From a phage: a stretch of DNA of 64,000 nt. Under the pieces are notes generated by a model. That model was not told the DNA's origin, did no database searches, and saw nothing but the letters and a program-made list of their open reading frames with translations. This document shows, one piece after another, positions 39,536 through 40,354 of this stretch. The stretch is taken from the sequence record PZ154896.1. One strand, written 5' to 3'. The translations under genes and the position numbers were made by a program. The first letter of the stretch is position 1, and each line of letters begins with the position of its first letter.

Positions 39536-39574
39536 ATACCTTGTCGGGGTTTCCACCTACTAAGGCAAGTGTTT

Positions 39575-39670
39575 GTACGAAACGCCGGGATTCGAACCCG
39601 GTTATTAAGCAGTTGACGCTACTCAATATTTTTAAAAGGCCATATCTCGACCATATCCGAACGTTCCGTC
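39575..39670 (-). ncRNA. candidate tRNA-like stable RNA (possibly an RNA C/D analog)
   Basis: tRNA-like T-arm CCGGG-UUCGAAU-CCCGG and acceptor-like pairing CGGAACG/CGUUUCG about 90 nt apart, but no canonical D or anticodon arms. Confidence 0.25.
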
Positions 39671-39836
39671 AAAAACGCTACTCGGCTTACGGCAAAGATA
39701 TTTCCTCGAATCGATAATTCTTTGCGCCGTTTCTGCTGTGATGTAAGGGGATATTAACAAATCATAAAGATTTATTAAGACCAGTCCTTACTCAGGGAAC
39801 ATCAGTCCGACGACTTGCCGGTAGCGACCCGGCTTC

Positions 39837-40181
39837 TTATTTTGACATATCATCAATTTGTTCTCTACGTCTACGCCATAGATTAATTACTTCATCAACA
39901 CATTCAGCATTTGGTATATGACGACAATAGTATAGTGATTCGCGTTTCTGGAACCGATGTTGTAATGGAATTTCGTTTAAAAGGTCTTTACGGTCAAAGT
40001 ATTCAAAACTAGTTAACCCGGAACGGTTTTTAAGAAACTTCCAATGTCCGAATTCATTTTGAAAATAAACATAATCAGCGTGTTGATATAACGAATTAAT
40101 CAACCGGTCGGAAATAACTGTATCCTGTTCATTAAAATAAAACGTTAAATCATGAACTACCAGATAAATATTACCTTTCAT
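39837..40181 (-). CDS. hypothetical protein embedded in the tRNA region
   Basis: 114 aa from MKGNIYLVV with GAGGAA SD; occupies the position of segB in T4. Confidence 0.45.
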   Translation of the reverse strand: MKGNIYLVVHDLTFYFNEQDTVISDRLINSLYQHADYVYFQNEFGHWKFLKNRSGLTSFEYFDRKDLLNEIPLQHRFQKRESLYYCRHIPNAECVDEVINLWRRRREQIDDMSK

Positions 40182-40199
40182 ATTTTCCTCACTTAAAGT

Positions 40200-40276
40200 T
40201 GGTCGAGACAGAAGGATTCTAACCTTCAACCTACGGATTAGAAGTCCGTTGCTCTATACAATTGAGCTATGCCTCG
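40200..40276 (-). tRNA. tRNA-Arg (anticodon TCT)
   Basis: hand-folded cloverleaf: 7-bp acceptor, TAGCTCAATTG D-arm, anticodon loop CTTCTAA, T-arm, encoded CCA. Confidence 0.75.
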
Positions 40277-40279
40277 GAT

Positions 40280-40354
40280 TGGTGACCCTGGCTGGTTTCG
40301 ATCCAGCTACCTATCAGTTATGAGCTGACAGCTCTCCCATTGAGCTACAGGGCC
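40280..40354 (-). tRNA. tRNA-Met/Ile (anticodon CAT)
   Basis: hand-folded cloverleaf: acceptor GGCCCTG/CAGGGTC, D-arm GCTCAATGGGAGAGC, anticodon loop CTCATAA, encoded CCA; 3 nt from tRNA-Arg. Confidence 0.7.

Follow-up and report, generated by a model that had tools for sequence, protein, structure and literature searches.

A Mosigvirus-type phage carries homologs of T4 RNA C and RNA D at the end of its tRNA cluster

The stretch of phage DNA analysed here (sequence record PZ154896.1; 64,000 nucleotides, hereafter the window) derives from a Mosigvirus-type, T4-like phage, and our subject is the non-coding end of its transfer RNA (tRNA) gene cluster. Between a 114-amino-acid open reading frame (ORF) and the cluster terminator lie ~300 nt without a credible ORF, which sequence comparison identifies as homologs of two stable RNAs of T4, RNA D (species 2 RNA, gene rnaD) and RNA C (species 1 RNA, gene rnaC). 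Every feature of the locus is carried by the minus strand, in the order tRNA(CAU), tRNA-Arg(UCU), a trna.2-type ORF, RNA D, RNA C, a 3′ element and the terminator; coordinates below refer to that strand unless marked (+). The 1-kb region is 98-99% identical to the corresponding DNA of Escherichia phages 308Ecol101PP, JS09 and HX01. We put at roughly 85% the probability that it is the Mosigvirus counterpart of the distal part of the T4 tRNA cluster, including the processing scheme proposed below. The feature as such is already known, as homologs of T4 RNA C and RNA D plus the trna.2 ORF of T2L.

The T4 cluster ends with tRNA-Arg, rnaD, rnaC and a terminator (record X03016). Aligned base for base with the window, T4 rnaD and rnaC are collinear with the non-coding stretch, without rearrangement, at ~90% mean column identity and with a homologous terminator at the end. 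Searches with nhmmer recover both RNAs in the same order: rnaC with E = 2.5e-38 (window 39713-39578, model positions 1-136) and rnaD with E = 1.8e-20 from the T4 query alone (39839-39723) or 2.8e-36 from a four-sequence profile. The RNA C homolog occupies 39574-39713 (137 nt plus ACA) and scores 162.5 bits against our covariance model R1; the RNA D homolog occupies 39720-39840 and ends 6 nt from RNA C. RNA C is identical to its T4 counterpart at 135 of 137 bases (98.5%) and sits in the same place, as the last RNA before the cluster terminator, while the neighbouring RNA D diverges from T4 more than RNA C does. The 341-nt non-coding stretch folds far below shuffled sequences in energy (z = -5.3; 0 of 100 shuffles equal it). 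A preliminary description of this DNA had offered two identities for the stretch, a decayed tRNA or the stable RNAs C/D of T4. The alignment to the T4 tRNA/RNA C/RNA D region that it proposed, reported here, bears out the latter, and decay is contradicted by the many compensatory changes through which both RNAs keep their structure across genera. The "tRNA-like element" it described does have the T arm and acceptor pairing; what it took for one element is two separate RNAs.

As modelled, RNA C has the shape of a tRNA with an arm of ~70 nt in place of the D arm. A 7-bp acceptor stem (39707-39713 with 39578-39584) is followed without a spacer by the P2 helix, an invariant 3-bp AGG/CCU helix whose 5′ strand lies at 39704-39706. 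The long, irregular arm runs from P2 to about 39636 and is joined by an A-rich linker of 9 nt to the hairpin P7 (39603-39628), which has 10 bp and a hexaloop. After P7 come one unpaired base and the T arm, CCGGG-UUCGAAU-CCCGG (39585-39601; 5-bp stem), which adjoins the acceptor 3′ strand at 39578-39584. In the consensus this strand leads into an invariant U discriminator and NCA, read here as U 39577 and the tail ACA at 39574-39576. The acceptor/T-arm top half, the U discriminator and the ACA tail are common to T4 and the window, and of the two substitutions that separate the RNAs one turns a U-A pair of P7 into U-G.

Covariation argues for this fold. RNA C homologs were gathered by BLAST and pattern scans, and 25 distinct sequences were aligned with model R1: T4, the window (Mosigvirus), Dhakavirus, Karamvirus, an Erwinia phage, Tegunavirus (phiR1-RT), Gelderlandvirus (Melville), Kanagawavirus (PEi20, Kosakonia phage 305), Marfavirus (Marfa) and several metagenomic contigs. 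Together the RNA C and RNA D alignments span ~8 phage genera. Alignment A7 of RNA C has 94.6% of its cells paired, and of its 51 pairs 33 have changed on both sides, against 5-10 for slid partners. Across alignments the ranges are 94.6-95.2% paired and 21-33 pairs changed on both sides versus 1-10 slid, and none of 500 shuffles reaches the observed values. The acceptor and T-arm helices both show covariation. The acceptor stem reads CGAUUCG/CGUUUCG in T4 and the window, with two U.U mismatches, CGGUUCG/CGUUCCG in Karamvirus and a perfect CAGUCCG/CGGACUG in Tegunavirus. The tail varies as well, from U-ACA in the window and T4 to U-UCA in Tegunavirus and an encoded U-CCA in Marfa-like copies. 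Ordinary tRNAs are themselves weak matches to model R1, with the anticodon arm falling on P7 and the long arm deleted. With relaxed thresholds, the best Rfam match within 39545-39836 is tRNA-Sec (16.6 bits, where the gathering score is 47), which ends exactly at the discriminator; this match and others of its kind, including NsiR1 on the terminator, are sub-threshold and were set aside.

RNA C also has a long-range pairing between two loops. The apical UUGACG of the long arm (39667-39672) is complementary to the P7 hexaloop CGUCAA (39613-39618), which lies at the anticodon-arm position, and this 6-bp kissing helix is fully complementary in 25/25 RNA C homologs, without a mismatch. It reads UUGACG/CGUCAA in its common form, UUGAUG/CAUCAA in Tegunavirus and UUGGCG/CGCCAA in Marfa-like phages, which amounts to two independent compensatory double changes (A-U to G-C and C-G to U-A). 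EnC15, Melville, PEi20 and Kosakonia phage 305 keep the pairing despite an unrelated sequence in the rest of the long arm, and in the last three of these the apex of the long arm is itself a hexaloop. Because the covariance model does not include the kissing pairs, they had no part in the fitting of the alignment. Sequestration of the loop at the anticodon position argues against a role in decoding or as a decoy for anticodon nucleases, and for a compact, closed fold. We found no published covariation model or Rfam family for RNA C or RNA D; the kissing-loop architecture, and the covariation-supported structures as a whole, may therefore be undescribed.

Two further observations concern RNA C pairing. 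In one clade (L011 5958-6098, L024 2499-2639 and L026 4201-4341) the T loop reads UGCAUGC instead of UUCGAAU, and in that clade the conserved unpaired UGG beside the AGG/CCU helix reads UCG. This co-change, a single event, could reflect a contact of the T loop like the D-loop/T-loop pair of tRNAs. The minimum free energy (MFE) fold of the whole stretch draws a different helix, 6 bp between GAAACG at the 3′ end of RNA D and CGUUUC of the RNA C acceptor 3′ strand. We rejected it because, in homologs that lack RNA D, this strand of RNA C changes jointly with the 5′ strand of the same molecule, and because the RNA D of the L070 type (GAAGCG) mismatches its own RNA C.

RNA D contains three structural elements: a 5′ hairpin at 39817-39833; a closing helix that resembles an acceptor stem, G(U)CGUCG / CGGCGC (39808-39814 with 39724-39729); and a long and irregular middle hairpin, in which the internal loop UUCCCUGA is conserved and the tip varies. 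An alignment of 17 homologs, among them the Vequintavirinae phage LTH01, a Karamvirus, a Jiaodavirus and a metagenomic contig, has 95.9% of cells paired in the consensus, and 12 of 20 pairs have changed on both sides versus 1-5 in slid controls. T4 RNA D shares the order upstream of RNA C, the 5′ hairpin, the closing helix and the internal loop; it is ~80% identical and differs in the apical part of the middle hairpin. The two also differ at their ends. T4 RNA D starts 1 nt after the CCA of tRNA-Arg and finishes in an encoded A-CCA, whereas the RNA D of the window starts at the stop codon of the inserted ORF (UAA, 39837-39839, inside the first bases of the RNA D homology) and has the tail GGCGC-A-AAG, an A followed by AAG with no encoded CCA. 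Among the homologs ACCA occurs only in T4, and the others end in ACCG, ACAG, ACCU or ACCC; the encoded CCA is thus a peculiarity of T4 and not a feature of the family.

Our survey shows that RNA C and RNA D are widespread, modular and mostly unannotated. The RNA D/RNA C region was found in ~815 phage records, and the two RNAs occur independently of each other. JS98 has RNA D and a precise deletion of RNA C, several genera have RNA C without a nearby RNA D, and the Karamvirus vB_Ent31 has RNA D and no RNA C between tRNA-Trp and tRNA-Gly, the place of RNA C in several genera. In Karamvirus, Tegunavirus, Gelderlandvirus and the Erwinia phage RNA C lies among tRNA genes at tRNA-like spacing. An RNA D homolog was also seen outside Straboviridae, in the Vequintavirinae (rV5-like) Escherichia phage vB_EcoM-LTH01 (L009 1501-1601; nhmmer E = 7.7e-26), where it directly follows tRNA-Met and has a short apical loop, AGUUCCCUCAACGAUAAC, shared with the Karamvirus and Jiaodavirus copies. 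In the latter phages, vB_Ent31 (L152 1173-1419) and ATCCa (L153 1176-1407), the RNA D-like element follows tRNA-Asn, and unannotated, conserved non-coding sequence with a hairpin, CCGAAAGUUUACUUUCGG or UGAAAGUUCGCUUUCA, continues beyond it up to the next tRNA; further small RNAs could be encoded there. Viral contigs were also scanned with a permissive gapped pattern, which gave ~120 loci, mostly unrelated; of these the covariance model kept only L070 and L086.

Annotation of these RNAs is uneven. Both are unannotated in the genomes closest to the window, and rnaC and rnaD are annotated in RB-phage records. No Rfam 15 family covers RNA C or RNA D at gathering or relaxed thresholds. GenBank labels on RNA C homologs include tRNA-Met, tRNA-Trp and hypothetical protein, all of them likely annotation artefacts; ARAGORN likewise calls a 95-nt "tRNA-Met(cat)" inside one RNA C homolog (L021 8491-8585).

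This distribution bears on the first of several other explanations for the stretch, that it is a cis-acting 3′ untranslated region of the 114-amino-acid ORF which protects the mRNA from 3′ exonucleases or controls termination. The stretch does run from the stop codon of the ORF to the terminator, and we found no promoter between the ORF and RNA D. The explanation is contradicted by the occurrence of the RNAs without the ORF: RNA D directly follows tRNA-Arg in T4 and a tRNA in the Vequintavirinae phage, and RNA C stands between tRNA genes in several genera. We regard it as very improbable. 

Slightly less probable still is that the stretch consists of one or two decayed tRNA genes without function, kept as a spacer or as transcribed junk. 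In favour of decay, the acceptor/T-arm part has neither a D arm nor a 7-nt anticodon loop, neither ARAGORN nor the Rfam tRNA model (RF00005) makes a call in 39545-39836, the region is dispensable in T4 (PMC2330249), and RNA C is absent from JS98 and some Karamvirus phages. Decay is hard to reconcile with ~50 base pairs kept through 21-33 compensatory pair changes over ~8 genera, with a 6-bp loop-loop pairing kept through two compensatory switches, with an RNA C 98.5% identical to that of T4 beside an RNA D that differs more, or with the accumulation of both RNAs in T4 (PMC9697503).

We give equally little weight to the idea that RNA C is an aminoacylated tRNA mimic acting on the ribosome, as a transfer-messenger RNA (tmRNA)-like or suppressor-like adaptor. 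The acceptor stem, T arm, discriminator and (N)CA or CCA end would suit such a role. In RNA C, though, the kissing helix sequesters the 6-nt loop at the anticodon position in every homolog, the D arm is missing, acceptor pairs 4 and 5 are U.U in most lineages, and there is neither a G3.U70 (pair 3-70 is A-U or G-C) nor a tag reading frame; ARAGORN finds no tmRNA. Finally, two small proteins from minus-strand TTG-start ORFs of 42 (39632-39760) and 47 (39483-39626) amino acids, present in the mechanical ORF list and matched by "hypothetical protein" over homologous DNA in several GenBank records, can be dismissed, as the starts are non-ATG and lack a ribosome-binding site, homologs carry 1- and 2-nt indels, paired substitutions keep helices and not codons, and the 47-amino-acid ORF passes through the terminator.

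For the homologs of the T4 RNAs we propose the following processing scheme. The T4 species 1 and 2 RNAs, known since the 1970s, mature from a dimeric precursor through tRNA-processing enzymes. In the window, a single precursor would carry the tRNAs, the ORF, RNA D and RNA C, its transcription starting at a middle-type promoter before the tRNAs and/or arriving by read-through. Within RNA C the acceptor/T-arm minihelix would serve as a built-in tRNA scaffold, on which RNase P would cut at the RNA C 5′ end, between U39714 and C39713; most homologs have a U at position -1. Host 3′ exonucleases, together with the CCA-adding enzyme, would then complete the 3′ end, a maturation step that we assume because neither RNA encodes CCA here (U-ACA and A-AAG). 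The same cleavages would free RNA D, with its acceptor-like helix closing the molecule, and the compact RNA C would resist nucleases and accumulate, as in T4. The strong conservation of unpaired bases in loops and bulges suggests a protein partner. A more far-reaching reading, which we consider unlikely, makes RNA C neither relic nor tRNA but a widely conserved tRNA-scaffolded RNA whose acceptor/T-arm module recruits RNase P and the 3′-end machinery and whose body is held rigid by the kissing helix. Its target in trans would be a factor, from host or phage, that binds tRNAs: RNA C might, for instance, titrate an enzyme of processing or modification, or a defence protein directed at tRNAs. RNA D would then be a second module of this kind, independent of RNA C and also found outside Straboviridae.

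Several points weigh against our assignment of the region and its processing. RNA C and RNA D of this phage are predictions from sequence; those of T4 were seen by Northern blot. The 3′ ends need the assumed maturation just described, and the 5′ end of RNA D cannot arise as in T4 because the stop codon of the ORF overlaps it. The parts given to RNase P, 3′ exonucleases and the CCA-adding enzyme follow background on the T4 species 1 and 2 RNAs. Most lineages have two U.U mismatches in the RNA C acceptor stem. The fitting of alignments A5 and A7 to the nested structure biases them towards it; the aligned sequences are phylogenetically related, so that cell counts overstate the number of independent events; and the kissing helix has two independent double changes behind it. 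The tRNA region is also dispensable for laboratory growth of T4 (PMC2330249).

Downstream of RNA C, a nearly invariant 3′ element, AACACUUGCCU..AGGUGGAA(A)CCCCGACAAGGU (39536-39573), separates it from the terminator. The element, conserved in the T4, Mosigvirus and Dhakavirus loci, varies too little to be tested for covariation. JS98, with a clean deletion of RNA C (L004 1500-1700), keeps it before the terminator as AACACUUGCCU..AGGUGGAACCCCGACAAGGU. In L145 it follows a sequence that matches neither the RNA D nor the RNA C 3′ end, with an RNA D homolog upstream. Most phages have a small hairpin after the element, GCC-GCAA-GGC or ACC-CUA-GGU, which is missing in the window.

The intrinsic terminator itself, AGCCCCUUCC-GAAA-GGUUGGGGCU followed by UUUUUU, lies at 39505-39533 by sequence and MFE fold and is homologous to the "pot. 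terminator" of T4 record X03016. A simple terminator scan missed it because of an internal UU/UU mismatch; the only terminator-like site that the scan returned, 39817-39833 (+), is the reverse complement of the RNA D 5′ hairpin plus a T-run, and marks the end of no plus-strand gene. T4 has two copies of the motif CCCCGAC, one in the 3′ element and one as the 5′ strand of the terminator stem (L001 ~2850-2900 (-); L003 1790-1840), so that the terminator 3′ strand could pair with either copy; the second copy reads CCCCUUC in the window.

Upstream of the tRNAs, a putative middle (MotA-dependent) promoter was read from the sequence at 40417-40443, with tttGCTTTA at 40435-40443, a 12-nt spacer and TATTAT at 40417-40422, which we take to be the motif and spacing of a T4 middle promoter. 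T4 has the annotated promoter PM2 at the equivalent position, and a sigma-70 scan returned nothing at 40417-40443. A late promoter inside the cluster was rejected, as there is no TATAAATA between 39840 and 40460. The late-promoter motif TATAAATA does occur at 39496-39503, right after the U-run of the terminator and before the next gene (start 39460), an arrangement also present in JS98 and many relatives.

The two tRNA genes lie at 40280-40354 (anticodon CAT; Rfam tRNA 59.4 bits) and 40200-40276 (tRNA-Arg(UCU), which reads AGA; 71.1 bits). Both were called by ARAGORN, which finds only these two in the whole window where the equivalent T4 locus has eight; apart from them the Rfam tRNA model finds no canonical tRNA in the window, and no other Rfam family reaches its gathering score there. 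The preliminary description was accurate on this part of the locus: the set is reduced to two tRNAs, tandem, 3 nt apart and both with an encoded CCA, and the 114-amino-acid ORF follows at 39837-40181. The strong terminator that it placed at the end is present too, ~40 nt below the start of 39545 that it gave; it named no strand for these features, all of which are on the minus strand. Of the two findings by which it could be refuted, further canonical tRNAs did not turn up, and against the lack of a stable transcript stand the homologous T4 RNAs, seen by Northern blot (PMC9697503). Its choice of Met or Ile for the CAT tRNA was a reasonable hedge, given an acceptor stem (GGCCCUG) and a D arm that are those of T4 tRNA-Ile; the anticodon stem is different. 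Initiator identity is ruled out by G1-C72, and C4-G69 and C5-G68, which we take to be TilS determinants, are both present. The CAT tRNA is probably an AUA-reading tRNA-Ile of the lysidine type, as in T4.

The tRNA-Arg(UCU) of the window (40200-40276, compared with L003 1425-1499 and with JS98, L004 1422-1494) is close to the tRNA-Arg of JS98 and unrelated in sequence to T4 tRNA-Arg(UCU). Different tRNA lineages thus give the same anticodon at the same locus, which is consistent with cassette exchange (SegB homing, PMC2330249). In this AT-rich genome the long ORFs of the window contain 10.4 AUA and 7.8 AGA per 1000 codons, and we infer that the two tRNAs supply AUA decoding, if the CAT tRNA is lysidine-modified like T4 tRNA-Ile, and AGA decoding.

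The ORF at 39837-40181 has an ATG start and a GAGG ribosome-binding site and is annotated as a coding sequence in the closest phage record. It is ~67% identical to T2L trna.2 (AJ880101; PMC2330249), which occupies the same site between tRNA-Arg and RNA D; a trna.2-type ORF stands directly upstream of RNA D in T2-like phages. T4 lacks such an ORF and instead has the homing endonuclease gene segB upstream of tRNA-Arg. The protein matches PHROG 3355 (unknown function; E = 2.8e-50), tblastn finds the ORF in 426 phage records, and its homologs form 7 clusters among 5.8 billion proteins. Searches of Pfam gave nothing above threshold (only a sub-threshold DUF2654), NCBIfam gave no match, and a sequence search of the PDB gave none that was credible. 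An AlphaFold model (pLDDT 71) had no Foldseek match in the PDB with E below 0.4 and, in BFVD, matched only uncharacterised proteins of T4-like phages.

As a genome feature the locus is ordinary, and homologs of both RNAs in T4-like phages have been noted before. Northern blots revealed T4 RNAC and RNAD, which were placed among the late RNAs and listed without a known function (PMC9697503), and a review also lists their function as unknown (PMC3014915). The BW1 study of 2025 describes the same two RNAs in another T4-like phage and reports a convergent single-nucleotide polymorphism in rnaD during adaptation to a new host (PMC12685909), which hints that the RNAs are not neutral. Full-text searches, which missed the original papers of the 1970s-80s, found none that assigns a function to RNA C or RNA D. 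What these RNAs do is a long-standing small question in a model phage, and hundreds of phage genomes leave them unannotated or mislabelled. The tRNA-like top half and the kissing loop of the comparative structures give handles for mutagenesis, pull-downs and deletion tests, and the independent occurrence of the two RNAs in the tRNA arrays of many genera is a further handle on function.

Compared with a canonical tRNA (RF00005), RNA C keeps the 7-bp acceptor stem, the 5-bp T stem with its UUCGAAU loop and the single discriminator base. It has no D arm: an arm of ~70 nt directly follows the acceptor strand, the 9-nt A-rich linker comes next, and the anticodon-position hairpin is 10 bp long, with the 6 nt of its loop paired elsewhere. 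The tRNA-like domain of tmRNA and engineered tRNA scaffolds show that an acceptor/T-arm module can recruit tRNA-processing enzymes while carrying a non-tRNA body, and RNA C would work like them, as an acceptor/T-arm module that bears a structured body of its own. It differs from tmRNA in being far smaller and in lacking a reading frame, the alanine identity pair and a tmRNA-type pseudoknot ring.

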